64,000 bases of DNA. Origin: Candidatus Dormibacteria bacterium. Lineage in GTDB: Bacteria; Chloroflexota; Dormibacteria; Aeolococcales; Aeolococcaceae. The notes beneath the pieces are model-generated. The model saw only the letters and a program-made list of their open reading frames with translations. It made no database searches and had not been told where the DNA came from. Of this stretch, positions 40,423 to 60,965 are shown one piece after another (position 1 is the first letter of the stretch; the number at the start of each line of letters is the position of its first letter). Both the position numbers and the translations under genes were made by a program. The DNA lies in assembly GCA_050734185.1 (NCBI GenBank), contig JBOHUE010000157.1, positions 1,430 through 65,429 on the forward strand, given 5' to 3'.

Positions 40423-41997
40423 ATGACCCCGCTTCCGCCTAACTACTCGCCAGAACTAATCTTCGGAGTAATCGGACCTGCTGGCGCGGACCTGGGTGGA
40501 GTCAGCACAGCTCTTGAGAATGAGTTGCAGCGATACCGATACAAGGCGAAGATCCTGCTGGTAAGTGACCTTTTTAGGTCGCTTCCTGGCTTTGATCACC
40601 TGGGTGGAATCACTCGACCACGAGGCCTGAACGACTATGAGGTCCTGATGTCGGCGGGCGATGCCATAAGACGTCGAGCGAACCGGAAAGACGCCGCAAT
40701 TCTCATGGCCCTAACTAGCATCATCGATTCGCACGGCGATTGGACGAAGGAGCCGCGAGACACTGCCTGGATTCTGAACTCAATCAAAACTCCTCAGGAA
40801 GCGGACCTACTCAATGTCGTATACGGTGGACGCTGCTGGCTGTTATCAGTGTTTACGAAGCGAGAGAGCCGTATTCAGCAAATAGCCGACGAACTCGCGA
40901 GGCAGCGCGGAGGCACCGTCGGGAGAGTGGAGACTCAAGAAGCGGCCGACCTTGTGGAACGCGACGAGGGCGGTGTCACCATCGACGAATTCGGTCAGAA
41001 CGTCGGGGAAGCCTTCCCGCTCGGCGACTACTTCATAGACGTCGACAGAGACGACTTACAGGCACAGTTGCAAAGGTTTCTTCGCCTTGTCTTTGCTGAC
41101 CCATTTATGACGCCACAGCGCGATGAACAACTCATGTTTGTCGCGTACGGAGCTGCAATGCGTTCGGCATCGCTTTCCAGGCAGGTGGGGGCGGCGATCT
41201 CGGTCGAAGACGGCGCCATCGTCGCCATTGGGGCAAACGAAGTACCTAAGGCCGGAGGTGGTCAATATTGGGCTGAAGACTCCAATGCGAAGGCGACTGA
41301 TGATGGCAGGCAATTTCGACAGGCAGAGGATCTGAGCGAGACAACGAAGGACGCAATGGTCCGCGAGCTGCTGGCCTCAATTGAAGAACTACTCAAGGAT
41401 CCGGTTGATTCAGTTTTCGCGTCGCTTGATCGCAAGAAGCTTCGGGTGTTTGATCTCCTCGAGTTCTATCGTGAGATGCATGCGGAGATGGCCGCGGTCA
41501 TCGACGCGGCTCGCCGAGGGGTGTCAATTCGCGAGGGCACGTTAGCCACTACAACCTTCCCCTGCCACGACTGCGCTAAGCACATTATCGGGGCGGGCAT
41601 TAGACGCGTGCTCTTCATACAGCCATACGTGAAGAGCCGAGCGGCTGAACTCCATCGCGACGCACTAGTTATAGGTCATGAGCGCCCGATAGACGTTATA
41701 TTTCAGGGCAACCCCGTGACCTTCGAGACGTACCGCGGGATAGCCCCCAAACGCTACATCGAAGTCTTTCGAATGCCGGCCCGAAAGGTGGCTGGGACTC
41801 AGGTCACCTGGCGCGAAGGCGTTGCCGAGCCACGCACTGGGTTGCTGGGATCGAAGCTAACGCAGTTTGAGGTTGTAGAGGCAGAGCGTGCTGGACAGTG
41901 GTCAGGAGTTGTGGTGCGCGAGCAAGTTTTGGGAAAGAGACTACCCACAATAATCAAGGCCTTAGAGGAGGCTATCAATGCAGAACGGACCACATGA
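40423..41997 (+). CDS. AvcD/DCD-like anti-phage deoxycytidylate/dCTP deaminase (N-terminal CMP-kinase-like domain with degenerate P-loop + C-terminal zinc deaminase)
   Basis: C-terminal CDA/dCMP-deaminase zinc motifs HAE (aa 353-355, nt about 41479) and PCHDC (aa 380-384) preceded by VGAAISVEDGAIVAIGANEV. N-terminus IFGVIGPAGADLGGVSTAL resembles the cytidylate-kinase P-loop IxGPAGxGKST but lacks the Lys. Lower GC than flanks. Confidence 0.65.
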   Translation: MTPLPPNYSPELIFGVIGPAGADLGGVSTALENELQRYRYKAKILLVSDLFRSLPGFDHLGGITRPRGLNDYEVLMSAGDAIRRRANRKDAAILMALTSIIDSHGDWTKEPRDTAWILNSIKTPQEADLLNVVYGGRCWLLSVFTKRESRIQQIADELARQRGGTVGRVETQEAADLVERDEGGVTIDEFGQNVGEAFPLGDYFIDVDRDDLQAQLQRFLRLVFADPFMTPQRDEQLMFVAYGAAMRSASLSRQVGAAISVEDGAIVAIGANEVPKAGGGQYWAEDSNAKATDDGRQFRQAEDLSETTKDAMVRELLASIEELLKDPVDSVFASLDRKKLRVFDLLEFYREMHAEMAAVIDAARRGVSIREGTLATTTFPCHDCAKHIIGAGIRRVLFIQPYVKSRAAELHRDALVIGHERPIDVIFQGNPVTFETYRGIAPKRYIEVFRMPARKVAGTQVTWREGVAEPRTGLLGSKLTQFEVVEAERAGQWSGVVVREQVLGKRLPTIIKALEEAINAERTT

Positions 41998-42286: not shown

Positions 42287-43729
42287 ATGCGATTTAGCGA
42301 GTACTTCGGCGTCGCTGCCGCCGGCGTGGAGTGGTACGACCCAGTACTCACTGAGGACACTCCACTATATGTGGACCCGTTTCTTGTCTACGAAGATGCT
42401 GATCCTTTTTGGGCCAGCTCACATGACATCGTTGTCGAGTTCTTTGCGACCGCGCTGGGGCTGGTCCGCCGTGCGCCCGATAGGCGCCAGTCCGTGCATT
42501 GGCGCAAGGCGGAAAGACTTCTCACGTTCCCGGAACCCAAGGAGTTCGCGCTCGGCCTCGCTATGGGGACACCGGTTGGGTCAGGCACGGGAAGGGAATT
42601 CGCGCATGTCATGGCAGGGGCGTTGGGCGTCGTCGCCGGAAGCGGCATCAGTCAGGTCGAGTTTGTAGAGCTGTTCACGCTCTTTGCGCAGGGGCTGGGC
42701 CCCGATCGGATCAGCGATATCCTCTGTAACATCCTCAAGGCGCAGTTCATCGGCTACACACAGTCGATTGCGAAAGAGTTGGGGATTCAGTTATCGCCGA
42801 TACCGACCCGACACGTCAGGTGGAGCGCTGCGAGCACGCGGTGGGAGGACGGACTGTGTCTTCTGCCGCTAAGCCCGGTCACCAACGCAGGTATCCTCTT
42901 AACGCCGCATCGCTTCCTCAAGAACATCCCAACCGTAACGGCTCTGGGCTTCTGGAATTGGGCTGAGACGAGTGCCAGCCAAATTCTCCGCGACGACCTC
43001 AACTACGACCTCGCCGAGCATCTAAGCCGAAGCGAGCGGGAGAGGCGCGCCCGCGAGCTTGCGCATCTACGGCCGCCCCTGGCGCTTAGCTATCTGCAGC
43101 ACGTGGCGGAGGATGTCGAGCACGCTCCATACAATGTTGAAGACGATCCCGACCTACTAGTTGGTTGGCACGAGGCCGGTCGGCTCGCATTCGATCCTGG
43201 CTTGGCGCCAGATGGAGATCCACCGGAGGCTGACTTCTGCATTTGGGTAGGTGATCTGCTGGATCGCTTTCGGCATGCCGTAGAGGAAACGGATTTGTGG
43301 CGCGTGCTATGGAATGACGCTTTGACGAAGCCTCGAGCTGAGAAGATTGTCCAGGCGGTTGCAGGAAGTGTTCTGGCTCCCTACTGCGAAGCCGCTGATG
43401 TTGACCTATCGCGTGAGGCGAATATCGGTCGCGGCGCGGTCGATTTCAAGTTCGCTCGAGGCTGGAAGAAGCGCGCTCTCACGGAAGCTAAGTTGATATC
43501 AAGCAGTCATTTCGACAAGGGAGCCGGAAAGCAACTACCTCAGTATCTGAAAAGTGAACGCATCGAGTGCGGGTACTATTTGTGTGTTGGATTCTTCAAC
43601 GGCGATTTCGAAGGCGATCGCCTATCCAGAGTTACTGAAACGTGTCGGGTGTTATCCGAGCAAATGGGACGTCCGATAGCTCCAGTCATCGTTGATGCTA
43701 GACCCAAGGAATCCGCCTCAAAGTTGTAG
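42287..43729 (+). CDS. hypothetical protein, possible C-terminal PD-(D/E)xK nuclease fold
   Basis: 480 aa, no recognised family; C-terminal GAVDFKF...ALTEAKLIS fits a D...ExK nuclease core; island codon usage. Confidence 0.5.
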   Translation: MRFSEYFGVAAAGVEWYDPVLTEDTPLYVDPFLVYEDADPFWASSHDIVVEFFATALGLVRRAPDRRQSVHWRKAERLLTFPEPKEFALGLAMGTPVGSGTGREFAHVMAGALGVVAGSGISQVEFVELFTLFAQGLGPDRISDILCNILKAQFIGYTQSIAKELGIQLSPIPTRHVRWSAASTRWEDGLCLLPLSPVTNAGILLTPHRFLKNIPTVTALGFWNWAETSASQILRDDLNYDLAEHLSRSERERRARELAHLRPPLALSYLQHVAEDVEHAPYNVEDDPDLLVGWHEAGRLAFDPGLAPDGDPPEADFCIWVGDLLDRFRHAVEETDLWRVLWNDALTKPRAEKIVQAVAGSVLAPYCEAADVDLSREANIGRGAVDFKFARGWKKRALTEAKLISSSHFDKGAGKQLPQYLKSERIECGYYLCVGFFNGDFEGDRLSRVTETCRVLSEQMGRPIAPVIVDARPKESASKL

Positions 43730-43758
43730 TCCTCCACACGGAGCTCTCCGTATCCATA

Positions 43759-43802
43759 CCGCGTTGGCCATTACATCGCACCGCGTTGGCCATTACATCG
43801 CA
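43759..43802. repeat. perfect 22-bp tandem direct repeat x2 (CCGCGTTGGCCATTACATCGCA)
   Basis: Seen directly, 30 bp after the stop of 42287..43729. Confidence 0.8.
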
Positions 43803-44107: not shown

Positions 44108-45082
44108 ATGACGCTTGACCAGCTTCGGTGGCATAGTTGCGCATACTTCGGGATGGCCGCTCAATTCGCTGACGAGCCGGTGCGCTCCGCCGCCTTTGCA
44201 TTCCTCGCCGACCAGGCGCGGATCCGCGATCAGCCGTGGCCGCCTGTACTTCCACGGTCCCTCCTGCAAGCTGGCTTTGAGTTTGGCGGTCAGCGGGTTC
44301 CGCTCGTCGGCCCGCAGGGGATCTTCAAGCCGGCGGCGCTCCCCGGAACGATCCCACTCAGCATCACCACGGCTCCACCGGTGCTGCATCACGATGCCCC
44401 ATACGACGACGAGTTCGGGTACGGCCACCTCGTCTATCGCTATCGCGGCATCGATCCAAGCCATCACGAGAACGTGGGGCTGCGATCCGCGATCAAAACG
44501 CAGACGCCGCTGATCTACTTCCACGGCATCGTTCCCGGTTCCTACCTCGCGACGTGGCCGGTGTATATCGTGGGAGATCGTCCCGAGCAGTTGGCGTTTA
44601 CGGTTGCTTTCGAGCCGGGCGCTGTCGAACGGCTTCCTGAGGCGCAGCTCATGGAAGAAGACGCGAGGAGGGCATATGCAGAGCGCCTCGTCTTGCAGCG
44701 CCTCCACCAGGCTGGGTTTCGTGAGCGAGTACTGACTGCGTATCGGCGGTGCTGCGCACTGTGTCGGTTACGACACGCACCGTTGCTCGACGCGGCCCAC
44801 ATCATTGCGGACGGCCGGCCACGCGGAGAGCCGGTAGTGAGCAACGGCCTGGCGCTTTGCAAACTCCATCACGCGGCATTCGACGCGAACATCATCGGGA
44901 TCCGGCCGGATCGCGTTGTCGAAGTCAGGCAGGAGGTCCTTAGTGAGACGGATGGCCCGATGCTCGTCCACGGCTTGCAAGAGGTCCACGGGTCGCGGAT
45001 CTGGACGCCGCGTTCACCGGAGCTGCAGCCAACCGCGGCCCGACTTGAGGAACGCTATGAAGAGTTCCAGAAGGCCGGGTGA
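44108..45082 (+). CDS. HNH endonuclease (PF13391-like) with N-terminal reader-like domain; type IV restriction candidate
   Basis: HNH motif CALCRLRHAPLLDAAHIIA...NGLALCKLHHAAFD; N-terminal about 190 aa of unknown or PUA-like fold. Confidence 0.7.
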   Translation: MTLDQLRWHSCAYFGMAAQFADEPVRSAAFAFLADQARIRDQPWPPVLPRSLLQAGFEFGGQRVPLVGPQGIFKPAALPGTIPLSITTAPPVLHHDAPYDDEFGYGHLVYRYRGIDPSHHENVGLRSAIKTQTPLIYFHGIVPGSYLATWPVYIVGDRPEQLAFTVAFEPGAVERLPEAQLMEEDARRAYAERLVLQRLHQAGFRERVLTAYRRCCALCRLRHAPLLDAAHIIADGRPRGEPVVSNGLALCKLHHAAFDANIIGIRPDRVVEVRQEVLSETDGPMLVHGLQEVHGSRIWTPRSPELQPTAARLEERYEEFQKAG

Positions 45083-46020
45083 CAATGGGGCGCGTGTTCG
45101 TCGCCGTCACCGACTACGACTGGTATCGGAAGCTGCGGCAGATCCCCGATGTCGACGAGGTGAACTTCTGGCAGCCCAGCGGTGGTCGGAGATTCGGCGC
45201 AATCGGGGTTGGCGAGATGTTCCTCTTCAAGCTGCACGCGCCCTACAACGTCATCATTGGTGGTGGTTTCTTCGCACGCCACACAACGCTTCCGCTCCAT
45301 TTGGCCTGGGAATTCTTTGGGCTCAAGAATGGCGCAAGCAGCGAGGAGGAAATGGTCGTCAGGGTGGCACGCTACGTTGATAGCCTCAAGGGCGTGTCGG
45401 CGCTGCAGCGGAGCAAACACCCGATCGGCTGCGTGCTCCTCGAGCAACCGTTTTTCTTCCCAGAGACCGAATGGATTCCCCAACCCGCAGATTGGGCCCG
45501 GAACATCGTGCAGGGCCGCGGTTACGACCTCGCCGAGGCGACGGGCCAGAGCCTGCTAACAAGCGTCAGCGAGCGCTTGGCAGGTGAGTCCGTTGTGCTG
45601 CTTGATGAGGCGACCGGCCGGTACGGAGCACCAACTCTGGTGCGCCACCGCCTCGGACAGGGATCGTTCCGCGCTGCCGTGACTGACGCCTACCACCGTC
45701 AATGTGCCGTCACCGGAGACCGGGTCCTCTATGTGCTCGACGCGGCTCACATCCGGCCGTTCGCTCGGGGTGGTGAGCACAGCGTGAACAACGGGTTGCT
45801 TCTTCGGAGCGACCTTCACACGTTGTTCGATCGCGGGTATCTGGCGGTCGACCCACAACATAGGGTCCAGGTGAGTCGCCGGCTGCGCGAGGAGTTCGAC
45901 AACGGGAGAGAGTACTACGCACTGGAAGGCCGTCGCCTGCTCCTGCCGGCGGAGCGCGTCGACCTCCCCGATTCCGGTTTGCTGGCTTGGCATCGGCACG
46001 AGGTCTTCGTCGCTGCGTGA
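45079..46020 (+). CDS. EVE/PUA-like-domain HNH endonuclease (PF13391-like); type IV restriction candidate
   Basis: ATGA overlap with the upstream HNH gene; N-terminal EVE-like FWQPSGG...GEMFLFKLHAPYNVIIGGGFFA; HNH motif CAVTG...LDAAHIRPF...NNGLLLRSDLHTLFDRGYLAV. Confidence 0.7.
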   Translation: MTMGRVFVAVTDYDWYRKLRQIPDVDEVNFWQPSGGRRFGAIGVGEMFLFKLHAPYNVIIGGGFFARHTTLPLHLAWEFFGLKNGASSEEEMVVRVARYVDSLKGVSALQRSKHPIGCVLLEQPFFFPETEWIPQPADWARNIVQGRGYDLAEATGQSLLTSVSERLAGESVVLLDEATGRYGAPTLVRHRLGQGSFRAAVTDAYHRQCAVTGDRVLYVLDAAHIRPFARGGEHSVNNGLLLRSDLHTLFDRGYLAVDPQHRVQVSRRLREEFDNGREYYALEGRRLLLPAERVDLPDSGLLAWHRHEVFVAA

Positions 46021-46102: not shown

Positions 46103-46411
46103 TCACGCTGCCGTCGTAGGCTGATGCTGAGCCTCGAACTCGACTGGCGTCAGCAAAACCAGTGACATATCGTGGCGCTGGCGGTTGTGGAAGATCTCCA
46201 GGTACTCGAAGATCACGCTTGCGAGCTCAACCGGCGTCGACCAACCTGGCCAGGTCGCTTGAGCTGGTGCAACTCCGGCCGTGCGGACCCAGCAAGTGCG
46301 GGGTGTTACGCGTTCTCCAGCGCCGGGAGTGTTTCCACCACCACCTCCGTCGACCGTTGCGTCAGCTTGGCCACTGACCCGCCGCTGAAGTAGCGGCGAC
46401 GAACGGCACAT
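46103..46411 (-). pseudogene. IS3-family transposase (integrase core) C-terminal fragment
   Basis: IFEYLEIFHNRQRHDMSLVLLTPVEFEA matches the conserved C-terminal tail of IS3 OrfB (IFEYIEvFYNRxRRHSxLGYxSPxEFE); no upstream catalytic region present. Confidence 0.5.
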
Positions 46412-46775
46412 TCATCGTGCTGCTCCTTGAGCACGGCACGGACCAAGCGCAGCAACGAGTGGCGGTTGGAAACATGCCGACCACGTCGCAGCGTCGGCTG
46501 ACCTCCTAGTTAAGCCGCTCCGGGAGTTCGTGGACCAGATCACGCGGCGGTGCCCGACCGGGAACCCGTAATACGCGAGCACGTCGTCCTGGGCTGCCCC
46601 GGGGCACGTCACGAGCTTGGCGAAACGCTTCTCGAAGAGCCTGCACACGCGACCAACGGCGGCTTTTGGCTGTGACGCGATCGGGTGGGCAAAGAGGGTG
46701 CGAATCGTGGCGGCCGACATCCGGTGCGCAGCCTTCCGAACGGTGGCCAACGCGTTTCTCATGACGTGCACGGCC
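46412..46775 (-). pseudogene. IS256/Mutator-family transposase internal fragment
   Basis: VHVMRNALATV...LAYYGFPVGHRRVIWSTNSRSGLTRR matches the IS256 conserved block (CxVHxxRN...FPxxHWxxxRTTNxIE); truncated at both ends. Confidence 0.5.
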
Positions 46776-46857
46776 GCTCGGCCACCTGGCCCCGACGAAC
46801 ACCTACCGAGAGACGACCTGTTGACCCTGAACGAGCACTCTGGAAACATCCCGTCCG

Positions 46858-47452
46858 AATGGACATTGACGAAGTTCAACGATCGAGAGCGATCGCACGA
46901 CTTGGCAAGCTTGGCGGGTTCGCTCCCCCGGCTGGCGAAGCCCTCGTCGATGCCGCCATCGCCGGCGCTATCGACCATGCATTTGAGTTGATTAATGGCT
47001 CGGGCGCTGTTCCGACGAGCATGACAACTAGTAAGGCTGACCAGCTGCGTTTCATCTGCGAGCGCGCGGGGCGCCTCTTGTCCCAACGGGAGGTGGAAAT
47101 TCTGTTCCGCGTGACAGCGACAGCAGCACGAACGATCCTGACGACAATGCTCGCCACGTACGAGGAGGCTCTGCGTGAGAAGTTCGTGGCGCGCATGCGT
47201 AGCGATGCGCTGGTAGAACCCAGCGGCAGCGACGATGCTGGACTAAGCTGGACGCTGCGATTTACTGAGTCGGGCACTCTCGATACCGCCTGGAGTGAAG
47301 TCGTTCGACTTGGCATCGCAAGTCTTGGTGACATCAGCTCGTCACGGCGAACACTGACGATTCCTCGTAGCGCCACCATCCAGGGTGAGTCTATTGACGT
47401 TCTCGCCGCGCTTGGGCTGGAGCAACCAGCGACGCGTCCATCAAGGCGGTGA
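46858..47452 (+). CDS. hypothetical protein (island cargo)
   Basis: 198-aa ORF from ATG at 46858 with island-like (lower GC) codon usage; no recognised domain; partly overlaps the upstream part of the IS256-fragment ORF, which is non-homologous. Confidence 0.35.
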
Positions 47453-48314: not shown

Positions 48315-48715
48315 ATGGATGATTGGCTCAGGAGAGTCGGAATGACTGGTCTGGAATGGCAGCGAGAGCCGGGCGTCTATTTCATTTACGACGTAGGGAA
48401 CGATCGCGTGAAGATTGGATATGCGACGGATCCGTACGACCGCATGACGACGCTGAAGACCGGAAATTCACAACAGCTCTTGCTCCTTGCTGTTGCAGTG
48501 CGAGAACGAAACACGATGAGCGTGCTTACCACGCTCAGTTCGCTGGCGATCTGGTCGAGGGGTCGCGCGAGTGGTTCAAGCCCAGTGGGCGGCTGAAGGC
48601 GCTCATCGAAGCCGTACAGCACAATTACGGCAACCATGGCGCCTATCCAGCCCCGTCCGGCGGGTTGCTTCGCTATCGCGTGCGGGGCGGCCCCGACGGA
48701 AGGCAGCGTCGCTAA
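48315..48715 (+). pseudogene. T5orf172 / GIY-YIG-like domain protein, frameshifted
   Basis: N-half in the frame of 48315 (GVYFIYDVGNDRVKIGYATDPYDRMTTLKTGNSQQLLLLAV). C-half (ERAYHAQFAGDLVEGSREWFKPSGRLKALIEAV) continues in the frame of track ORF 48323..48715. Shift lies at about 48490-48510. Confidence 0.55.
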
Positions 48716-49332: not shown

Positions 49333-52300
49333 CTACCCGGCGTTGAGATTACCGTGAGTCTGGCGACGGCCGAACGTCGCGTGATCTCGCTTGCTGGCCG
49401 CCCGCCAGCCAGACACTCGCATCTTCCCCACCGGCGCTTGACGAAGCTGTGGGTCGCGCACCGGATTGAAGACTGCCGTTAATTCGGGAATCCCGCCGTC
49501 GGTGAGGTGCTCAACGACGTAGACCCAGTAGTCGGCACCGAGCTTGGGATCTAGCGCAACCTCCCACTCACTCGTCTCCAGGATGAAAGCGTCCGCTGCG
49601 AGTCCTCCGGACGCTTTCAGTTCGATGTAGCGGCCATCGCTCGCCACGAAATCGGCTCCCACCAAGGGCCCCTGTCGGTGCACGACGAAGCCGCCGCGCG
49701 TTGCCTCGAACATCTCGACGTATGGACGAGCGGCATCCTCGACAGCAGTGTTCGGAGGGATTGGAGTAGCGTCATCGCGGGCTTGACTCGGTCGGTCGGA
49801 CTCCGGGCGCGGCTTCCGGCGACGCGCAGTCCTTGGGAGCTCCCGCACCGCCTGAGACCCCAGAGCGTCATGCTCGGTGCTCTCGATCGACAACAACTCG
49901 AAGGAGGAAGGGTCGGCAAACGTACGCTCCACATGTGATGGTCGCCTAGTTTCCGTGGACGTCCGTGAGGAGCCTGGGGCTGGCCGTGTTGCCTGTCGGA
50001 TCGCATCAATAGCAGCCTCAACATCGTCTGCATCGTCATGATCGCCCTCCGCTCCACCGAAGCCCGCTTCGACTGAGAGCACGCCTACGCTGGTCTCGTA
50101 GCGCTCGATCCGCTTAGCGAAAGCCTCGGGCGATCGGAAAGCTTCTCCAAGCAGCGCCGCCAGCGCGTTCGTCGCGGCGAGTTGTCGCCGCTGAACGAGG
50201 GAACCGAGTATTTCTGCGGCTGTGTGACCGAATACGTCAGCTGATTCCACCCCGACAAGTACTCCGTCTCGAAGCAGCACCCGCGGCTCGGTGTGCAGTC
50301 GAATGTTTCCCTGGTCGGGGAGGCGAAGGACCAATCGGCCTTCAATCTTCAGTGCAGTTGCCGGCTGAAGACCCGCCGCCCCTGCGGCGAGATTGGCAAT
50401 CACGGCGCGATCCCAGCCCCCTTCGGACCGAAGCAACTCTGGCCATGCGCGGACGGCAGCCAGCCATCGACCTCTGAGATCCGCGCTGAGGTCTCCTCCG
50501 GCCACGACCAGCCACTGTTCCTCAAGGACCTCTCCCGGTGTCAACTCCCTGACGGCGAGCCAACGGGCTGCGGTTCCCACGACGGAGGCGTCGTACGTGC
50601 CGGGCAACCACCACGCAAGGTGAGTCTGGAGGGCGGACCGAATCTCCGGCCGGGCAGTCCACCAAGCCTGGTCGGCATCAAGCCAGCCGCGGTCTGTCAG
50701 TGCCGGCACGCCTGCGGGTCCGGCGCTCCCATGCGACACGACAGACTCTAGTCTCACGACCAATTCCCCATAGAAGTGGCGTGCGATCTCATCAACTGGG
50801 CTAGCCGCCATTTCGTAGCGAATGATGTCCGCCATCATCTGCGGATCGAGGTCCGCTCGCACGCCCAACGCGTCCCAAAGTGTGGCGGATCTCGGATAAC
50901 GTCCGGCGAGCTGCCCAACGAACGGGCCGGCGACAGCAGACACGTCCGCTCGCACCGTACGAACCGGTGACCACCATTCGTTGCCGATAAAATCACCCGG
51001 GGGCGGGGCGAAGATGAGGCCGACGCGGCCATTCCCGTGGAACTTAGGCCGGATAAGCAGACGAACCAGATCGGCACGCGCGGAGTTCGGCAGTGCTGTA
51101 AGTTCGCCAGCTATGAGCTCGTAACAAGCCCCGGCTGCGCGCCGACGCTGATCGACTGTGAGTTCTGGAGCTGTATCGCGGAGCCGCTGCAAGGTTGAGA
51201 TAAGGCGGTGCGGCGCGGGTCGTTCGGCGATGCCGATGTCATCGAGCATCGCGTCTGGCTGACTAGGCCAACCTAGGACCGATGCGGCTTCGCTCGCCAA
51301 GGCGAGCTTCGTTGCAGGACTACTGCGAACGAGATCCTTGGGCTTCTGCAAGGATCGGTCCAGCGCGCCGACCCAAGCGATCGACTCGAGCAGTCCCACC
51401 CACGACGACGCTACCTGAGGCGGGTCAGGGATCCAGTTGTAATAGAAATGCGCCGGCGTGGTCTTGCTGGTCGGCGCGATTCGGCCCCAATCCGCCTGGA
51501 GTACAGTCCACAGGGCTCGAGCTCGTCGCCCGCGTTGACGCGTCGACAGTGATGGCCACCGATCTACCAACCACGTGAGGTCGTCGGAAACCCAATCGTC
51601 GATGACACCGGTGGGTCGGGTCATCGCGCTTGAAGGCCAGACAATCCACGGCATCGTCCCGCGTGCGATCCTCGTCACGCGGCGTCCGTCACCGACGGCT
51701 TCGCCGATTCGCGGGCTGATGTAGGGACCAACCAAGCCCCCCAGGAATCGCAAGAACTCGGGAGGGGACATCTGCGCTCGAGCCCCCCGCTGGATACCTC
51801 GACCTCTCGGCACCGGGATCGCGTGAGTGTGGATCTCGTCGACAATCGCTCGGTCAGGCTTTCCGTTTGTCACGGCTTCCATGCCGTCCTGGCTGAGCAT
51901 GGCCGAGCTCAAATATGTTCTTGTGAGCGGTCGAGCGACAAGTCGTCGCGATCGCCCTTGACCAACGACGGCAGCGACGCGGAGACTGTCGCCCAACTGG
52001 CGCGCGATCATGGCTTCGTCTTGAGCGCGATGTGCCCGGCGATAGTCGTTCACGAAGCCTCGCCATCGATGCCTGATGAACTCGACCATCCGAAAGAGCT
52101 GTTCCCGCTGCGATTCATCGATGTGATCAAGCTTCGCTAAGGCGGCCATCCGGGGAACGACCAGGTCTGTGACGACGTGGTATGGGCCAGCCTGAAGCGC
52201 TACTCGGAAGGGCTCCTGCGACAACATATCGCGGACCCGCACGCGCATATCGCCTTGGTCCCGTCCGCGGCGCCGAGCCGCAAGCACACCCGGGGCTGGA

Positions 52301-54051
52301 TCGAGGAACGGATCGACAAGGTGGATCTCAGACTCATTGAAGTACCGCCGCAAGTCGGTGAGAGTTGCGGAGCGTGAGTACCCAAGCAGGTAGCCAGTGA
52401 GCGCAATACGTGGAGAAGGCCGGATCCGACCGCCATGCTCGATTGGTATGCATGCCGTCGATGCGATGGACGCGCGCTCCTCTTGAGTCGCCGTGGTCGC
52501 AACTAGGTCCAGCGCTCGAAGCCACCACCGTCCGTCGCGACGACCGAAACGGAGGTCATCGAGCCTGAGCAGAGCGAGCAGGTCTGGGAGCGCCACTGCG
52601 CGACCTCCCAGGGTGCCAACGACCGAATGCATCCTGCGCTCGTCACTTGACCCAGTGGCTGGTGCAGTTGCGGGAGCGACATACGAGACAGCCGTGCCTG
52701 TCGCCAAATGCAGGTCCGTTTCTCGGATGACTTCACGGAACGCCTCGTCTGGAGCCCACACAGCGGCAGAGGGTACCCGCCAACCCGCGACCGTGCGAAC
52801 GAATCGACGGTCGCGAAGCTGGCTCATCGCTACGTCAAACGCACGGTGCTGGAGGGAGCCGGGAGCAACCTCTGACGCGAGAGGGATGAGTGGCCACGGG
52901 GGTTGACCGGAACGGGATTCAGCTTCTATCGCCTTGGCGATGACATTGCCGATCTCAGTCAACAGCCAGCGATTCCAGTCATTCTCACGGAGTCGTTCGC
53001 GTCCAGGTGTTGGGTCGAAATCGGCTTGCACAAGCCAACGCAGTTCCGATGTGACATCTAGGGGCAGAAAACAGTGCAGCTTCGTGGGGCCGACCGAGCG
53101 ATCAATGGGCCGTGCGAGAACGATTGTCGACGTCTCGCCCGCCTGAACTTCCCGGCCTTGGCGTGCCAATCCGCGCGGGACCGCAGACGTCGAGTACCGA
53201 TATCGTCGCCAAGCCTGTTGCTCACAGCCAGGCCACGATCCGCCGATGCGACACTCGTCCCAGCCGCGCGTCCGGTTTGAAACGCCTGAGCGCCGATAGA
53301 ACTGGCCGCGGCCGCGTCCGGTGACTCGATCAATAATGACGATAGATTCCAGGCTGTCGAGCGTCAACAACAGGTGCAGGAATTCAGGCCTGGTTAAGTC
53401 CTCGATGATCGACGCCAATCGACCACGCTCCGAGGGTCGTACATGCAGCGTGAAATGAGCGCCACGAGGCCGGCGCGGCGGGAGCGGAAGCGGATCGGGA
53501 TAGATCTTGTCCTCAATACGAAAGGCGTACGAGCCTGACTCAATCTGCGGCGAATCAGTCAGCTTAAACACGGACTTGAAACCGATCCCGAAGAATCCGA
53601 TCTTGTTCTTCTTGGGACTATGCCCGGCCGAGCAGATTGCCCATACGTCTGGGGCCGAGAATGCCTGACCATCGTTGTGTACGCGGACCTCATCAGGCTC
53701 AAATAGAAAGAGTATTCGCCGCGCTCCTGCGTCTTCGGCGTTCTGGATCAATTCCAGCGCCCAATGGATGTCGCGCCCGTACAGCTGCTCGGACGCGATC
53801 GACAGGAGCGGACCAAGGTCGGGACTGCCGCGAAATTCTTCTTTTAGCGACCGAACTGCGCCGACGAACGTCTCATTCCAGTTCGGGTCGTCCTCCGGCA
53901 ACGATTCGACAGGGAGCCGCCGAGCCAGGCGCTCGACGGCATTGGCGGCGGCAGCCCGAAGTGAATCCACACCGGGAGAGGGTTCATGGACACCGCGGAT
54001 ACTGGCGCTCTTGGAGCGATTCGGGTCGATCAGCGTGGCGGTGGCCTCCAA
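49333..54051 (-). CDS. giant (1572 aa) sacsin/MORC-like GHKL ATPase with C-terminal DUF3883 / PD-(D/E)xK-like nuclease domain; defense-island protein candidate
   Basis: N-terminal HATPase_c_3-type N-box ELIQNAEDAGA and G-boxes KIGFFGIGFKS; C-terminal GADFVASDGRYIELKASGG...FILETSEWEVA...YWVYVV fits the DUF3883 GYDIxS...IEVKxT...lSxNE pattern. Confidence 0.75.
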   Translation of the reverse strand: MEATATLIDPNRSKSASIRGVHEPSPGVDSLRAAAANAVERLARRLPVESLPEDDPNWNETFVGAVRSLKEEFRGSPDLGPLLSIASEQLYGRDIHWALELIQNAEDAGARRILFLFEPDEVRVHNDGQAFSAPDVWAICSAGHSPKKNKIGFFGIGFKSVFKLTDSPQIESGSYAFRIEDKIYPDPLPLPPRRPRGAHFTLHVRPSERGRLASIIEDLTRPEFLHLLLTLDSLESIVIIDRVTGRGRGQFYRRSGVSNRTRGWDECRIGGSWPGCEQQAWRRYRYSTSAVPRGLARQGREVQAGETSTIVLARPIDRSVGPTKLHCFLPLDVTSELRWLVQADFDPTPGRERLRENDWNRWLLTEIGNVIAKAIEAESRSGQPPWPLIPLASEVAPGSLQHRAFDVAMSQLRDRRFVRTVAGWRVPSAAVWAPDEAFREVIRETDLHLATGTAVSYVAPATAPATGSSDERRMHSVVGTLGGRAVALPDLLALLRLDDLRFGRRDGRWWLRALDLVATTATQEERASIASTACIPIEHGGRIRPSPRIALTGYLLGYSRSATLTDLRRYFNESEIHLVDPFLDPAPGVLAARRRGRDQGDMRVRVRDMLSQEPFRVALQAGPYHVVTDLVVPRMAALAKLDHIDESQREQLFRMVEFIRHRWRGFVNDYRRAHRAQDEAMIARQLGDSLRVAAVVGQGRSRRLVARPLTRTYLSSAMLSQDGMEAVTNGKPDRAIVDEIHTHAIPVPRGRGIQRGARAQMSPPEFLRFLGGLVGPYISPRIGEAVGDGRRVTRIARGTMPWIVWPSSAMTRPTGVIDDWVSDDLTWLVDRWPSLSTRQRGRRARALWTVLQADWGRIAPTSKTTPAHFYYNWIPDPPQVASSWVGLLESIAWVGALDRSLQKPKDLVRSSPATKLALASEAASVLGWPSQPDAMLDDIGIAERPAPHRLISTLQRLRDTAPELTVDQRRRAAGACYELIAGELTALPNSARADLVRLLIRPKFHGNGRVGLIFAPPPGDFIGNEWWSPVRTVRADVSAVAGPFVGQLAGRYPRSATLWDALGVRADLDPQMMADIIRYEMAASPVDEIARHFYGELVVRLESVVSHGSAGPAGVPALTDRGWLDADQAWWTARPEIRSALQTHLAWWLPGTYDASVVGTAARWLAVRELTPGEVLEEQWLVVAGGDLSADLRGRWLAAVRAWPELLRSEGGWDRAVIANLAAGAAGLQPATALKIEGRLVLRLPDQGNIRLHTEPRVLLRDGVLVGVESADVFGHTAAEILGSLVQRRQLAATNALAALLGEAFRSPEAFAKRIERYETSVGVLSVEAGFGGAEGDHDDADDVEAAIDAIRQATRPAPGSSRTSTETRRPSHVERTFADPSSFELLSIESTEHDALGSQAVRELPRTARRRKPRPESDRPSQARDDATPIPPNTAVEDAARPYVEMFEATRGGFVVHRQGPLVGADFVASDGRYIELKASGGLAADAFILETSEWEVALDPKLGADYWVYVVEHLTDGGIPELTAVFNPVRDPQLRQAPVGKMRVSGWRAASKRDHATFGRRQTHGNLNAG

Positions 54052-54908
54052 GCGATATGCGCGAGTGCTAGGGCCTTTCGATGAGAGATGTCAAGCGATC
54101 ACACAACAAGCCCTCGCCCTCCGCATCCGCCACATTCGTCGCCAAGTTCAGGAGCGTTATACCGTCCGCGGCTCGGTCGGTGCGCGCGGGGCAGCCCACG
54201 GCTCTAAGCGCGCACCAAATAGTGCACAGAGTTGAGCACGGAAAGTCCACAGCTCTGATTGACGGGGACCATAGCCTTCCCCCGGTGCCCCGCTGAGCCG
54301 TGCACATCGCGCGACCAGTAGCGGTCCGTTGTTGGTCGACGTACTTGCTCATCGCGGTTGCCGCGGGTCGAGCTCCCGCGCGGAGAAAGCTGACGCCGAC
54401 TTGAGGATCTCCTTGGCTCGGGTGCAAATCGCTGTTCTCTCGCTCGAACTGTGCGATGCGGAGGTCTCTTCCGTCGTGGTCCCGGTGCGCTTCCCATCAT
54501 CCATCTCGGCTTCGTTAACCCAGGTGCTCGACGACTCAGCGTCAGGGCCCCATTAATTGGCGACGCGGCTGACACTCCCGAAGCGCTCACGGGACTGCTC
54601 ATATGCCTGGTGGGACCATCCGGATCCCCCCTCTCTGAGCTTAGTGATGCGTCCGCGCGCTCCGAAGTATTGGAGCTCACCTAACCTTCGGGGCCAAGGC
54701 ATCGCGAATCTCCGTATCGCGCCAGTTCCAGAGCTTGGTGGCCGACGCGCACCTAGCTCCGATGCCAGCAATCCTTATGCCGCGATTTGGCCGCACCCTC
54801 TACGTGACGGGCCAGCGACCGCTGAAGACGCCCCAGGCTTCCGGCGTCCCGCGAGCATAGACTCGCATCCTGGGCGGAGCGGGACGTCCGAAGACGAGGA
54901 GTGTCGCG

Positions 54909-56795: not shown

Positions 56796-57254
56796 GTGGC
56801 GGCGATGTCGCCGTGGGACCAGCAGCTGCGCGAGATCCGGGCCCGGCTGGCGGAGCTGTCCACGGAGCGGCGGCGGCGTGAACGCGCCGCGCACATCGCG
56901 CAGCGCGCGAGCGTCCGCGATATGGCCAAGTCCGGCACGATGCCGAGCCTCGCCGACGCGCTCGCCGCCCCGGACGATCTCTTCGACGCTGCCACCGCGC
57001 TTACAGCAGTGAAGGTGTTTCTCAAGAGCGGCGGCGAGGTGGGTCTTGGGTTCGCCCAGCGGCCGGGGACGATCGCGTTCAGTGACGGCCGCCGCCAGCA
57101 GCAGGCGAAGACCTGGGGCGAGGCGCGTGGCCTGGTCGCGGCCGGCTGGGAGCCGGGCTCCGCAGGCATCGCCGGCGTGCGGATCCACCTCAGCGGAAGC
57201 CGGGTGGAGCGTGTGGTGAGCGCCGATGAAGTGGTGGTCGAGCCCGTCGCTTAG
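56796..57254 (+). CDS. hypothetical protein
   Basis: High GC3 in frame; the frame stays open upstream to the VOC stop, so the start is uncertain (the GTG at 56787 is also possible). Confidence 0.4.
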   Translation: MAAMSPWDQQLREIRARLAELSTERRRRERAAHIAQRASVRDMAKSGTMPSLADALAAPDDLFDAATALTAVKVFLKSGGEVGLGFAQRPGTIAFSDGRRQQQAKTWGEARGLVAAGWEPGSAGIAGVRIHLSGSRVERVVSADEVVVEPVA

Positions 57255-58648
57255 GTGCTGCCACGCTGGAACTGGCGCGGTAGCTGCACGCGGAACACCG
57301 TGGCGCCGGGGCGCGAATCGATGTCGATGCTGCCGTGGTGCCGGTCGACCACGATGCGGCGCGCGATGTCAAGGCCAAGGCCGGTCCCCTTGCCGACGTC
57401 CTTGGTCGTGAAGAAGGGATCGAAGGCGCGATCCCGCACCTCCGACGGCATTCCGGGCCCCGTGTCAGTCACGTCGACGATCACGTCGTCGGTGCCCGCG
57501 CGGGCCGAGAGGCGCAGCGTGCCGCTGCCGCCCATGGCATCGATTGCATTGACGATGAGGTTGGTCCATACCTGGTTCAACTCTCCCGGAATTGCCTCGA
57601 TGCTCGGCAGGTCGCGCTCGTAGTCGCGGACAACGGTCACCCCGCGCAGCCGGTCCTTCAGCATCACAACCGTGCTGTCGAGTCCCTCGGTGACGTCGAT
57701 GATCTGGTGCGGCGCCCTGTCCAACTGCGTGTACGAACGCATGTCGTTGACGAGCGCCGAGATGCGGCCGGTCGATTCCTTGACCTCGGTGATCAGCGAC
57801 TCCATCGTGAGCGCGTTCGCCACCCAGTCCAGCCCGAGCGTGAGCAGCGATCGCGGTAACACCGCGGCAGCGCGCTCGCACCACGCGATGTCGGCGCCCG
57901 CGGCAGCCAGCGATGGCGCCACTCGCCATGCGGAGTCGACGCCACGCTCCTCGAGCCATGACGTGAGCTCATCCTCTCGCGCTGCAAGCCGCACGGAATC
58001 GCCCGCCGCAATCGGCAGGCCGATGTCGAGGCGCAGGTCATCCAGAACCGCGAACTGCTCTGCGCTCATCGACTCCCGCGCCAGCGCGCGGGTCGATTGC
58101 AGCAGGTCTGCCGTGGTGGTCTGCAGGGCTTCGACGGAGCGAGTTGCTGCCGACGCGGGATTGTTGAGCTCGTGCGCGAGCCCCGCGGCGAGCTGGCCGA
58201 GCGCAGCCATCGCCTGCTGCTGACGGGATGTCGCCTCGAAGTTGATGATCGTCTGAAACATCCCGTCGAGCAGGTGCGCGCCGAGCGGGAAGAGTGCGAG
58301 GGTGAGGTCGCGCAGCGCGGCTGAGGGAACCCGAAGTACCCGCCCGGGAATCGCCCCCCGGCCGCTGGTGAAGTAGCCCCCAGCCGGTGACCAGGCGCGG
58401 AAGCCACCTCCCCAATCGCCGGGGTGTTCCAGCAGCGCGGCAACCGTCGGCTCGCTGTGAGGCGTGCGGCGCATCAGCTCGATCCGGCCCTCGAGCAGCA
58501 CCCACCAGTACTCTGCAGGCGTCCCCTCGTGCCACAACACGTCGCCCGTCGCAAAGGCGACCTCGGTGCTCGCGCGGATCAGCGTTGCAAGCTGCTCCTG
58601 AGGGAGGCCCGCGAACACATAGACGCTCCGTAGCGCGTCGAGATCCAT
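57251..58648 (-). CDS. sensor histidine kinase with N-terminal cNMP-binding-like domain
   Basis: Start at the internal ATG 58648, 5 nt after the tmk stop (the 791-aa track ORF upstream part is antisense of tmk); cNMP/CAP-like VFAGLPQEQLATL...GDVLWHEG; HisKA H-box LAHELNNP; HATPase_c G-boxes DTGPGMP and GKGTGLGL. Confidence 0.8.
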   Translation of the reverse strand: MDLDALRSVYVFAGLPQEQLATLIRASTEVAFATGDVLWHEGTPAEYWWVLLEGRIELMRRTPHSEPTVAALLEHPGDWGGGFRAWSPAGGYFTSGRGAIPGRVLRVPSAALRDLTLALFPLGAHLLDGMFQTIINFEATSRQQQAMAALGQLAAGLAHELNNPASAATRSVEALQTTTADLLQSTRALARESMSAEQFAVLDDLRLDIGLPIAAGDSVRLAAREDELTSWLEERGVDSAWRVAPSLAAAGADIAWCERAAAVLPRSLLTLGLDWVANALTMESLITEVKESTGRISALVNDMRSYTQLDRAPHQIIDVTEGLDSTVVMLKDRLRGVTVVRDYERDLPSIEAIPGELNQVWTNLIVNAIDAMGGSGTLRLSARAGTDDVIVDVTDTGPGMPSEVRDRAFDPFFTTKDVGKGTGLGLDIARRIVVDRHHGSIDIDSRPGATVFRVQLPRQFQRGST

Positions 58649-58653
58649 TTCGC

Positions 58654-59310
58654 CTAACGGCGCGCGCCCGCGAGCAGCCCCAGTGACTCGGGCAGCCGCG
58701 CTGCCACCGTGTCGGCGATGGTCTGCGCCACCTCCAGAGCCGGCATGGTGGCGTCGATTGCCACCACGCGGTGCTCGCTCAGCGCCGCGATGTCCTCGAA
58801 GGCTGCGGCCACGGCAGCGTGGAAGTTCTCCGGCGCGCCCTCGATCCGGTCGAGCGGCAGCTGCTGCGCGTGTTGCCGGGTGACGGCCACCTCGATCGGG
58901 ATGCGCAAATACAGCGTGAGGTCGGGCCAGATGTCGCCGCACGCCTGGCGGTGCAGCTCGAGCAGTGGTTCGACGGGCAGGCCGCGACCACCACCCTGGT
59001 AGGCGATCGTCGAGTCCGTGTAGCGATCGGCGAGCACGAGCGCACCACGGTCCAGCGCGGGGACGATCACCTCGTGCAGCAGCTGCACGCGCTCGGCGAA
59101 GAACAGCAGCGCCTCCGACCATGGTTGCAGCGCCGGACCGCGCTGGTGCTGCAGCACGAAGCTGTGCAGCAGCTCGCCGAGCAGTGTCCCGTTGGGACGC
59201 ACGGTCACCACGTCGAGCCGCTGCTTGCGCAGCCACGCCGCGAGCGCCGCGACCTGCGTGCTCTTGCCGGCGCCGTCGAGCCCTTCGAGCGAAATGAAGT
59301 AGCCGCTCAC
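58654..59310 (-). CDS. tmk: thymidylate kinase
   Basis: P-loop [13 protein letters not shown]-type motif ADRYTDST, lid region. Confidence 0.9.
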
Positions 59311-60965
59311 TCCTCGGGCCGCAGTATGACCAGCCGCCGGTTGGGTTCGTCGCCGGTGCTGCGCGCCGACATGTCGTGCTGCTCGACGAGCTGATGCTGC
59401 AGCCGGCGCACGAACGAGTTCTGCGGCGCCAGCTCCACCTCGGCGCCCGTCTGCTGCGCGCGGTCGATCCCCTCGCGCGCCTCCTGCAGCGCGATCTCGG
59501 TGGGGTCGGGCTCCTCCAGGTCGAACACCTTCGCCAGCGCTCCCTTGATCTGCGCCACCGTGTTGCTCCGGAGCACCTGGATCGGGATCCCGCTCGACTC
59601 CGCGGTGCGCACCGGGGAGTCACCACGGCGGTAGTAGTTCTTCAGAGTCAGCACGACGTCTGCCTCTTCGACGTGTTGCTGGATGCGCGCCGGGACGCGC
59701 ATCTCGCGCAGCGATTGCTCGAGGTACGTGCGCGACACGCCGTAGGGAAAGATCGAGAGCGGATGGCCGGCTCGCACGACGGGGAGCGCGTCGCCGTCGC
59801 CGCCGCGGTCGCGATCGCGCCGCTGCGTCGACAGGTAATCGTCCACGTCAAAACGGCGGCGACGCTCACGCCCGCGGCGGCGCGCCGTGCCCGTGCCGGT
59901 GCCAGGGAACGGCGCCGTCTCGAACTGCGACGGTTGCAACACGCGTGGGCTCGTGTCGATGCGGCTCACGACCTGTCCCGCCTCGCCGCGCAGGCGCAGC
60001 TGCGGCGGGCGCACGCGGCCACGGAGCGCCTCGTCAACCGTCTCGGCCACGGGCTGATGCACCGCCACGCGGTCGCGCTCCTGGATCTCGACGAGGACGT
60101 CGAACGTCGGCGGCGATTTGCGCTCCAGCACCGACTTCTGCGTGCCGCGGCGGCGCGCCTCCTCGTCGGACAGCGTCACCGTCTGGATGCCGCCCACCAG
60201 GTCGTTCAGCGTGGGGTTGACCAGCAGGTTGTCGAGGTTGGTGCCGTGCGCGGTGGCCACCAGCTGCACGCCGCGCTCGGCGATGGTGCGCGCCGCCATC
60301 GCCTCGAGCTCGATGCCGATCTCGTCGATGACGATGCACTGGGGCATGTGGTTCTCCACCGCCTCGATCATCACCGCGTGCTGCAGCGCCGGCGTGCGCA
60401 CCTGCATGCGCCGTGCCCGGCCGATACCGGGATGCGGGATGTCGCCGTCGCCGGCTATCTCGTTCGAGGTGTCGACAATGACCACGCGCTTGCCCATCTC
60501 GTCGCTGAGCACCCGCGCGCATTCGCGCAGCATCGTCGTCTTGCCGATGCCGGGAGGCCCGAGCAGCAGGATGGACTGTCCGCTGACAACGATGTCCTTG
60601 ATGATGTCGATCGTGCCGGTGACGGCACGGCCGACGCGGCAGGTGAGCCCGACGATGTCGCCCGCGCGGTTGCGAATGGCGCTGATGCGATGCAGCGTCC
60701 GTTCGATACCGGCGCGGTTGTCGTCGCCGAAATCGGCGACGTGCTGCGCCACATAGTCGAGGTCGGCGTGACTCACCTGCGATGAGTCGAGCACCACCTC
60801 GGCATCGGTGAAGCGCGCCTCGGGTTCGCGGCCGAGGTCGAGCACGATCTCGAGCAGGTCGCCGCGGCCCAGCGAGCGTCGCTGTGCAGCGTCGGCGATG
60901 CGGGGTGGAAGCGCTTGGAGGAGCAGGTCGAGCTCCTCTTCCCACGAGGGACCAAAGGGCATCAT
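59307..60965 (-). CDS. SpoIIIAA/ycf45-like P-loop ATPase with C-terminal nucleic-acid-binding (R3H-like) region
   Basis: Walker [12 protein letters not shown], Walker B CIVIDEIG; overall layout like the ycf45 family; R3H assignment tentative. Confidence 0.6.

Follow-up and report, generated by a model that had tools for sequence, protein, structure and literature searches.

The window analysed here, a 64,000-nucleotide stretch of contig JBOHUE010000157.1 from a Candidatus Dormibacteria bacterium, carries on its minus strand a large gene that resembles tmtA, the gene of the anti-phage family Tiamat. The gene occupies window positions 49333..54051 and consists of 1572 codons plus a stop codon, with a TTG start at 54051. 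An open reading frame (ORF) of 1572 amino acids (aa) had been claimed at this place in the initial annotation, and the claim is exact: the ORF list and its translation show no interruption, and an independent assembly of this locus in Logan yields the same 1572-aa gene. Where does the protein begin? Because conservation sets in at about aa 30 when the N termini of homologues are aligned, translation could really begin at the GTG of codon 28 (window 53970) and not at the TTG. Relatives of the protein make up 214 homologous clusters, the closest 29 of them at E = 0. Many of these clusters are about 1500 aa long and share the same two terminal domains, so that the two-domain architecture is far beyond what chance would give.

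To which family does the protein belong? Judged by profile matches, it belongs to Tiamat (TmtA) as an intact, though divergent, member, because the PADLOC search proposed in the initial annotation returned an end-to-end match to the TmtA profile PDLC03968, with aa 34-1553 aligned to profile positions 12-1474 of 1486 at E 5.5e-105. Six other TmtA profiles match more weakly (E 2.7e-44 to 1.8e-16). Tiamat is a single-gene anti-phage family in which an Hsp90/sacsin-type ATPase is joined to a restriction-enzyme-like nuclease (Millman et al. 2022). The gene had been put forward as a candidate for a poorly characterised immunity protein. This is apt in so far as the mechanism is unsolved, but the protein is of no new kind, since Tiamat already has a name in that study. 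Reviews up to 2026 give the mechanism of Tiamat as unknown, and another preprint notes only its PD-(D/E)xK domain.

In the Millman et al. preprint, Tiamat stands in the supplementary tables and is absent from the main text. Table S2 describes TmtA as 'Hsp90, DUF3684, DUF3883', 1429-1590 aa long, with two cloned candidates: the 1590-aa protein of Bacillus cereus FORC_005 (IMG gene 2641244160), marked 'v' (verified), and the 1429-aa protein of Enterobacter sp. ku-bf2, marked 'x'. Our comparisons with these two proteins, by PADLOC and BLASTP, are based on the N-terminal 399 aa of each. In the PADLOC scan the verified B. cereus protein was assigned to PDLC03964 (E 1.4e-138) and the Enterobacter protein to PDLC03968 (E 1.4e-162), which is the window protein's own profile. 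By BLASTP the Enterobacter protein is 25% identical to the window protein over 341 aa (E 1e-18).

A search from the B. cereus segment returned only fragments of at most 680 aa, and three full-length, plasmid-borne proteins of the PDLC03964 type, from Hymenobacter, Agrobacterium and Methylorubrum, were used as proxies instead. When relatives of the window protein were aligned with the three proxies by hhalign, the match extended over 1155 columns, covering aa 46-1462, with a probability of 99.9% and E 1.4e-32. By profile alignment, then, the window protein is a true Tiamat homologue over almost its whole length. Its branch within Tiamat is a deep one, whose single tested member, from Enterobacter sp. 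ku-bf2, gave no defence in that screen. A Pfam hmmscan of the window protein and 30 relatives gave no match to DUF3684; the middle of the protein aligns profile to profile with PDLC03964-type TmtA, and the DUF3684 label in the Millman table probably came from a more sensitive method. The name Tiamat spans at least nine profile subfamilies (PADLOC PDLC03964-03972) that are mutually only about 25% identical. Because one name covers such divergent subfamilies, of which one is validated, census counts of Tiamat pool validated and unvalidated clades, the verified type being that of B. cereus (PDLC03964).

How is the protein built? Its domains are described here from the N terminus, all coordinates being on the minus strand. 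Pfam SACS (PF25794) matches aa 100-175 (E 5.2e-12; score 46.5 bits, cut-off 32.8), and NCBIfam NF047352, the sacsin N-terminal ATP-binding-like domain, matches with E 1.7e-21 (76.5 bits against a cut-off of 50). The initial annotation had called this end HATPase_c_3-type and MORC-like. The first label has to be replaced: Pfam HATPase_c_3 is absent from the window protein at E <= 1 and weak in 2 of 30 relatives, and for this reason we class the ATPase, from these models, as sacsin/Hsp90 type rather than HATPase_c_3/MORC type. The second label is half right, in that a GHKL+S5 module is present and MORC-type sequence membership is not. MORC and paraMORC were considered as families for the protein and, on the Pfam and NCBIfam models, set aside, HATPase_c_3 being missing and the best sequence models being of the sacsin type.

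Invariant and near-invariant residues of the ATPase were taken from 44 sequences with overall identities of 20-75%. Structures were predicted with AlphaFold2 from a 75-sequence alignment, in one model covering aa 30-1100 (mean predicted local distance difference test score, pLDDT, 90.4) and another covering aa 800-1572 (mean pLDDT 88.9). The modelled protein opens with a helical extension (aa 30-95; 53767..53964) of three helices with pLDDT 83-96. In this extension and at the edge of the ATPase, conservation is 90% or more at W58, K70, D78, Y91, G92 and H96, and the extension may act as a dimerisation strap. The GHKL (Bergerat-fold) ATP-binding domain of sacsin/Hsp90 type follows (aa 96-245; 53317..53766). 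Motif I is represented by E100, N104 and D107, motif II by N126-D127-G128, and motif III by G152/G155/G157 with K147/K150/K159; G197-A-H-F-T-L forms a motif IV-like element. The two motifs quoted in the initial annotation were located here, ELIQNAEDAGA occupying aa 100-110 and KIGFFGIGFKS aa 150-160. A second domain (aa 246-380; 52912..53316), consisting of a transducer/S5-like beta sheet and a long helix, completes the module. It contains an invariant cluster of D344, F345, P347, R351, W359 and N360, in which R351 is a candidate gamma-phosphate sensor.

Is this module a kinase? In the comparison of the ATPase module, where each score is followed by the second value of its row in brackets, sacsin SR1 scored 16.0 (155), ParE 43 kDa 14.9 (253), TRAP1 14.5 (283), GRP94 14.2 (309), MORC3 14.0 (223) and MLH1/MutL about 13 (222-234), all of them above histidine kinases at 5.8-5.9 (97-103). 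On the strength of these scores the first ~380 residues are a two-domain GHKL-plus-transducer ATPase module and not a kinase. A canonical histidine kinase, one of the identities that the initial annotation had named as fatal to its proposal, is thus not what lies at the N terminus; the HisKA/H-box dimerisation domain with a kinase-type HATPase_c that marks such enzymes was not found. As an aside on motif I, at 6001-6118 of the Hymenobacter canadensis plasmid NZ_CP114768.1 the annotated TmtA-like coding sequence starts inside that motif region, the protein beginning ..QNADDA; the tblastn match reaches about 117 nucleotides further upstream, and RefSeq has probably placed the start too far downstream.

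The long middle of the protein had been described as about 1200 aa of unannotated sequence, which is accurate, as Pfam is blank over aa 176-1440. Most of it is a scaffold (aa 381-1335; 50047..52911), a confidently modelled alpha/beta region with internal repeats, and for these ~950 aa neither a Pfam family nor a solved structural relative was found. Within the scaffold, the sub-region aa 621-900 is consistently basic. The scaffold is joined to the C-terminal domain by a disordered tether (aa 1336-1433; 49753..50046), with pLDDT 35-55 at aa ~1332-1371 and 1398-1428, which is the least conserved segment of the protein (mean identity 0.21 among close and 0.09 among distant relatives). Inside the tether lies a linear motif, FADPSSFELLSIE (aa 1378-1390; 49882..49920), with the family consensus L[AI]DPxx[FY]. 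The motif is present in the alignment across close and distant relatives, and the AlphaFold2 model has a beta strand at aa 1384-1393, with pLDDT about 97, amid the otherwise disordered linker. A docking or autoinhibitory role for this element is possible.

The protein ends in a PD-(D/E)xK nuclease domain of the DUF3883/NOV_C kind (aa 1434-1562; 49366..49752), with a restriction-endonuclease/Hjc-like fold. Pfam NOV_C, which is the same family as DUF3883, matches aa 1441-1518 above its cut-off (E 2e-5, 25.0 bits against 22.1). The catalytic set comprises E1438/E1449 on a helix, D1467 and E1477-x-K1479, and E1449, D1467, E1477 and K1479 are conserved among relatives. The DUF3883 or PD-(D/E)xK-like C terminus of the initial annotation is thereby borne out, and the lack of nuclease-fold residues that it had named as its other weak point was not observed. 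Conservation is highest in the ATPase and the nuclease and lowest in the scaffold and the tether. The catalytic residues of both active sites are invariant, and the two catalytic modules are intact and under purifying selection. Other bacterial sacsin-like proteins, 870-2300 aa long, showed no alternative effector domains in a Pfam scan, and hence we make no claim of effector swapping.

What surrounds the gene? The segment that contains tmtA, at ~40.0-55.5 kb of the window, has a GC content of 58-64% against 68-70% in the flanks, and the third-position GC content (GC3) of tmtA is 0.66 against 0.72-0.91 in flanking genes. Fragments of the insertion sequences (IS) IS3 and IS256 flank the gene. 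Because of the low GC and GC3 relative to the flanks, and the IS fragments alongside, we conclude that tmtA was acquired horizontally within a defence island. That the gene sits in a defence island had been proposed in the initial annotation, and the low-GC segment does hold a dCTP-deaminase, a PDC-M36A-like gene and two HNH genes.

The first of these, on the plus strand at 40423-41997, encodes a 524-aa protein with a cytidine/deoxycytidylate deaminase domain (PADLOC dCTP-deaminase PDLC02373, E 1.9e-131). It forms the left edge of the low-GC island and is labelled at NCBI merely as 'deaminase'. Next, also on the plus strand, comes a 480-aa ORF (42287-43729) whose N-terminal 220 aa match the candidate defence protein PDC-M36A (PADLOC E 2.9e-22) and which has no Pfam match; a perfect 22-nucleotide tandem duplication, at 43758-43801, lies just 3' of its stop codon. 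Two tandem overlapping paralogues of 324 and 313 aa follow on the same strand (44108-45082 and 45079-46020), each joining an unannotated N-terminal domain of ~190 aa to an HNH_2 domain at the C terminus. They resemble PUA/EVE-HNH modification-dependent (Type IV) restriction enzymes and may belong among them.

Around tmtA the DNA is broken up. Remnants of an IS3-family transposase lie on the minus strand on both sides of the tmtA segment, at ~54250-54600 and 46103-46290. The stretch just upstream of tmtA holds the end of OrfA with the start of OrfB, and the C-terminal rve_2 end of an OrfB lies ~8 kb on, on the same strand. This arrangement suggests either that tmtA-bearing DNA was inserted into an IS or that a composite element has decayed. 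Frameshifted fragments of an IS256/Mutator transposase (46300-47086, minus strand; Pfam Transposase_mut E 2e-11) abut the IS3 fragment, and a short plus-strand ORF at 48315-48596 with weak T5orf172/MUG113 (GIY-YIG-like) similarity (E 0.004-0.008) is probably a truncated gene. No tRNA and no flanking direct repeats delimiting the island were found. Outside the island, in the high-GC flank, a histidine kinase with a cNMP-binding domain stands beside an R3H/AAA/PTPase-domain protein that resembles SpoIIIAA-like ATPases. Their ORFs, at 57251-59626 and 59307-60965 on the minus strand, overlap by ~320 nucleotides, and one of the starts is probably wrong.

One might think that a gene in such surroundings is itself a decaying, non-functional relic. 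Its neighbours are fragmented (the IS3, IS256 and T5orf172 pieces), and no promoter-like site was found upstream, two sigma-70-like matches falling inside the tmtA ORF, a count not above that in shuffled sequence. However, the simple sigma-70 scan is uninformative for Dormibacterota, the frame runs for 4.7 kb without a break and spans 98% of the family profile, and all catalytic and structural invariant residues are kept. We regard a relic as very improbable. A terminator scan at tmtA was likewise uninformative.

Does tmtA travel with partner genes? All-against-all BLAST across 20 loci revealed no conserved neighbour gene, the shared clusters being tmtA itself and shadow ORFs within it, which fits a single-gene system. 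Defence genes nonetheless lie beside the homologues: BREX in one context, Hma with a GajB-like helicase or a Type III restriction endonuclease with an OLD nuclease in others, and further DruA with DUF2075 and AbiEii with RelE. An alignment-based contig scan of representatives of 185,579 species found 17 loci. All are in metagenome-assembled genomes (MAGs), which belong to Chloroflexota, several archaeal phyla, Desulfobacterota-like bacteria and Myxococcales. The same scan with a single protein as the query found no relative. The distribution of the family is rare and patchy.

These contexts bear on whether the protein is an immune protein at all. A MutL/MORC-like DNA-maintenance enzyme, or one associated with mobile elements and active in repair, recombination or island stabilisation, might simply travel with defence genes. 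The mark 'x' against the only tested member of the subfamily would suit such a role, as would the embedding of tmtA among IS remnants and the existence of GHKL-nuclease fusions in repair, of which MutL is an example. Against it are the full-length homology to a verified defence subfamily, the recurrence of defence neighbours in unrelated genomes (BREX, Hma, Type III restriction-modification, OLD, Druantia and AbiE), and the rare, patchy spread through bacteria and archaea, as is usual for defence genes but not for housekeeping repair genes. We think a non-immune role improbable.

What, then, might the protein do? The reading that we prefer, with moderate confidence, is that of a stand-alone anti-phage defence enzyme in which ATP-gated dimerisation licenses DNA cleavage. 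Binding of ATP would dimerise the N-terminal GHKL modules, as in MutL, MORC, Hsp90 and the type II topoisomerases, and dimerisation would close the scaffold around invading DNA or a replication intermediate. The basic segment at aa 621-900 would be the likeliest contact with nucleic acid, and the fast-evolving scaffold is probably the part that confers specificity or acts as a sensor. The conformational change would then license the tethered nuclease to cut, which the L[AI]DPxx[FY] element of the tether may hold back or set free. Most likely such ATP-gated cleavage would resemble that of MutL, paraMORC3 and GHKL-Shedu. In favour of this reading are the end-to-end TmtA match, the stronger conservation of ATPase and nuclease, the lack of a shared neighbour gene, the defence genes nearby, the horizontal origin, and the parallels with VcSduA and paraMORC3.

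Several points weigh against this proposal. Dimerisation, DNA binding, ATP hydrolysis and nuclease activity of the window protein are all inferred, and no mechanistic study of Tiamat or TmtA was found in the literature searched. The first 399 aa of the B. cereus TmtA align with the window protein by BLASTP at 28% identity over just 116 aa (E 1e-6); the verified TmtA is of the PDLC03964 type, and the sole tested PDLC03968 member, that of Enterobacter sp. ku-bf2, carries the 'x'. In addition, the sacsin and Hsp90 relatives of the ATPase act on proteins and not on DNA, so that the client of the ATPase module could be a protein. If so, the ATPase and the variable scaffold might form a chaperone-like sensor that recognises a phage protein, upon which the tethered nuclease would be released and would degrade DNA indiscriminately, giving abortive infection in place of an attack aimed at the invader's DNA. 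The ATPase does have its closest relatives among protein chaperones, and a variable scaffold would suit recognition of a phage protein. We consider such a sensor unlikely, though a more credible alternative than a maintenance enzyme.

How does the protein compare with known systems? Among the closest is the verified TmtA of B. cereus, with which the window protein shares a single gene for ~1500 aa, an Hsp90/sacsin-type GHKL domain, a long middle and a C-terminal DUF3883. Both match PADLOC TmtA profiles and both lie in defence islands. They differ in profile, PDLC03964 against PDLC03968, and in host, that of the window protein being a Candidatus Dormibacteria MAG (phylum Dormiibacterota), as exact matches to neighbouring proteins show.

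The ATPase subtype is common to the window protein and human sacsin (SACS; SR1, PDB 5v44-5v47), but sacsin, a very large chaperone-like protein of eukaryotes, carries UBL, DnaJ and HEPN domains and no PD-(D/E)xK nuclease, and its motif II reads N-N where the window protein has the canonical N-D-G. Sacsin proper, with its repeated SRR units, was rejected as an identity: the window protein gives a single Pfam SACS match and lacks DnaJ, HEPN and UBL. The plant protein NO VEIN shares the C-terminal NOV_C domain, Pfam NOV_C/DUF3883 being named after it. NO VEIN is a nuclear developmental factor of about 2700 aa and also bears a sacsin-like GHKL domain, and because of that domain it may be a eukaryotic relative of the window architecture.

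Among prokaryotic proteins, paraMORC3 combines a GHKL+S5 module with a C-terminal domain of restriction-endonuclease fold (E-D-ExK), is often encoded by a stand-alone gene, and has a predicted role in restriction-like conflict systems (Iyer, Abhiman and Aravind 2008). The same authors discuss an ancient partnership of GHKL+S5 modules with nucleases. The window protein likewise pairs a GHKL+S5 ATPase with a nuclease of restriction-endonuclease fold, but paraMORC3, as described, belongs to another GHKL clade and lacks the ~950-aa scaffold. As an analogue, the nearest that has been tested experimentally is the GHKL-Shedu protein VcSduA of the Vibrio cholerae WASA lineage (Shedu type I-D), a single protein that starts with a GHKL ATPase and ends in a PD-(D/E)xK nuclease. 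Defence by VcSduA is lost in point mutants of the ATPase and of the nuclease, and the predicted structure is an entwined dimer whose middle domain resembles a clamp. VcSduA is much smaller than the window protein, and its nuclease belongs to DUF4263 rather than to DUF3883; Pfam and PADLOC gave no DUF4263 or SduA match for the window protein, and Shedu was rejected as its family. MutL is a housekeeping repair protein whose C-terminal endonuclease is unrelated in fold and motif to PD-(D/E)xK, and no Pfam or NCBIfam match to MutL was found in the window protein, for which MutL membership was likewise rejected.

A Tiamat member opens no new category of biology, and because any DefenseFinder or PADLOC run would flag the window gene, a specialist would expect to see it flagged. 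What the locus adds is a well-supported, intact member from Dormibacterota, a poorly studied phylum, together with a domain map that can be tested: a GHKL-plus-transducer module, a scaffold with a basic segment, a motif-bearing tether, and an Hjc/restriction-like nuclease with named catalytic residues. These residues and the linker motif are offered as targets for mutagenesis. The pooling of divergent TmtA subfamilies, one of them validated, matters for counts of defence systems. The middle region, ~950 aa long and modelled with high confidence, is nearly confined to the TmtA-like family. One may speculate, though we hold it doubtful, that this region is a new ATP-operated nucleic-acid clamp or sensor, and that the Dormibacterial/Chloroflexotal clade, the PDLC03968 type, acts beyond the coliphages tried, for example on plasmids, other mobile elements or modified DNA. 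If the clamp or sensor were real, TmtA-like proteins would be the prokaryotic forms from which eukaryotic sacsin and NO VEIN descend, and the biochemistry of TmtA would point to an activity of sacsin-type ATPases that is linked to nucleic acids.

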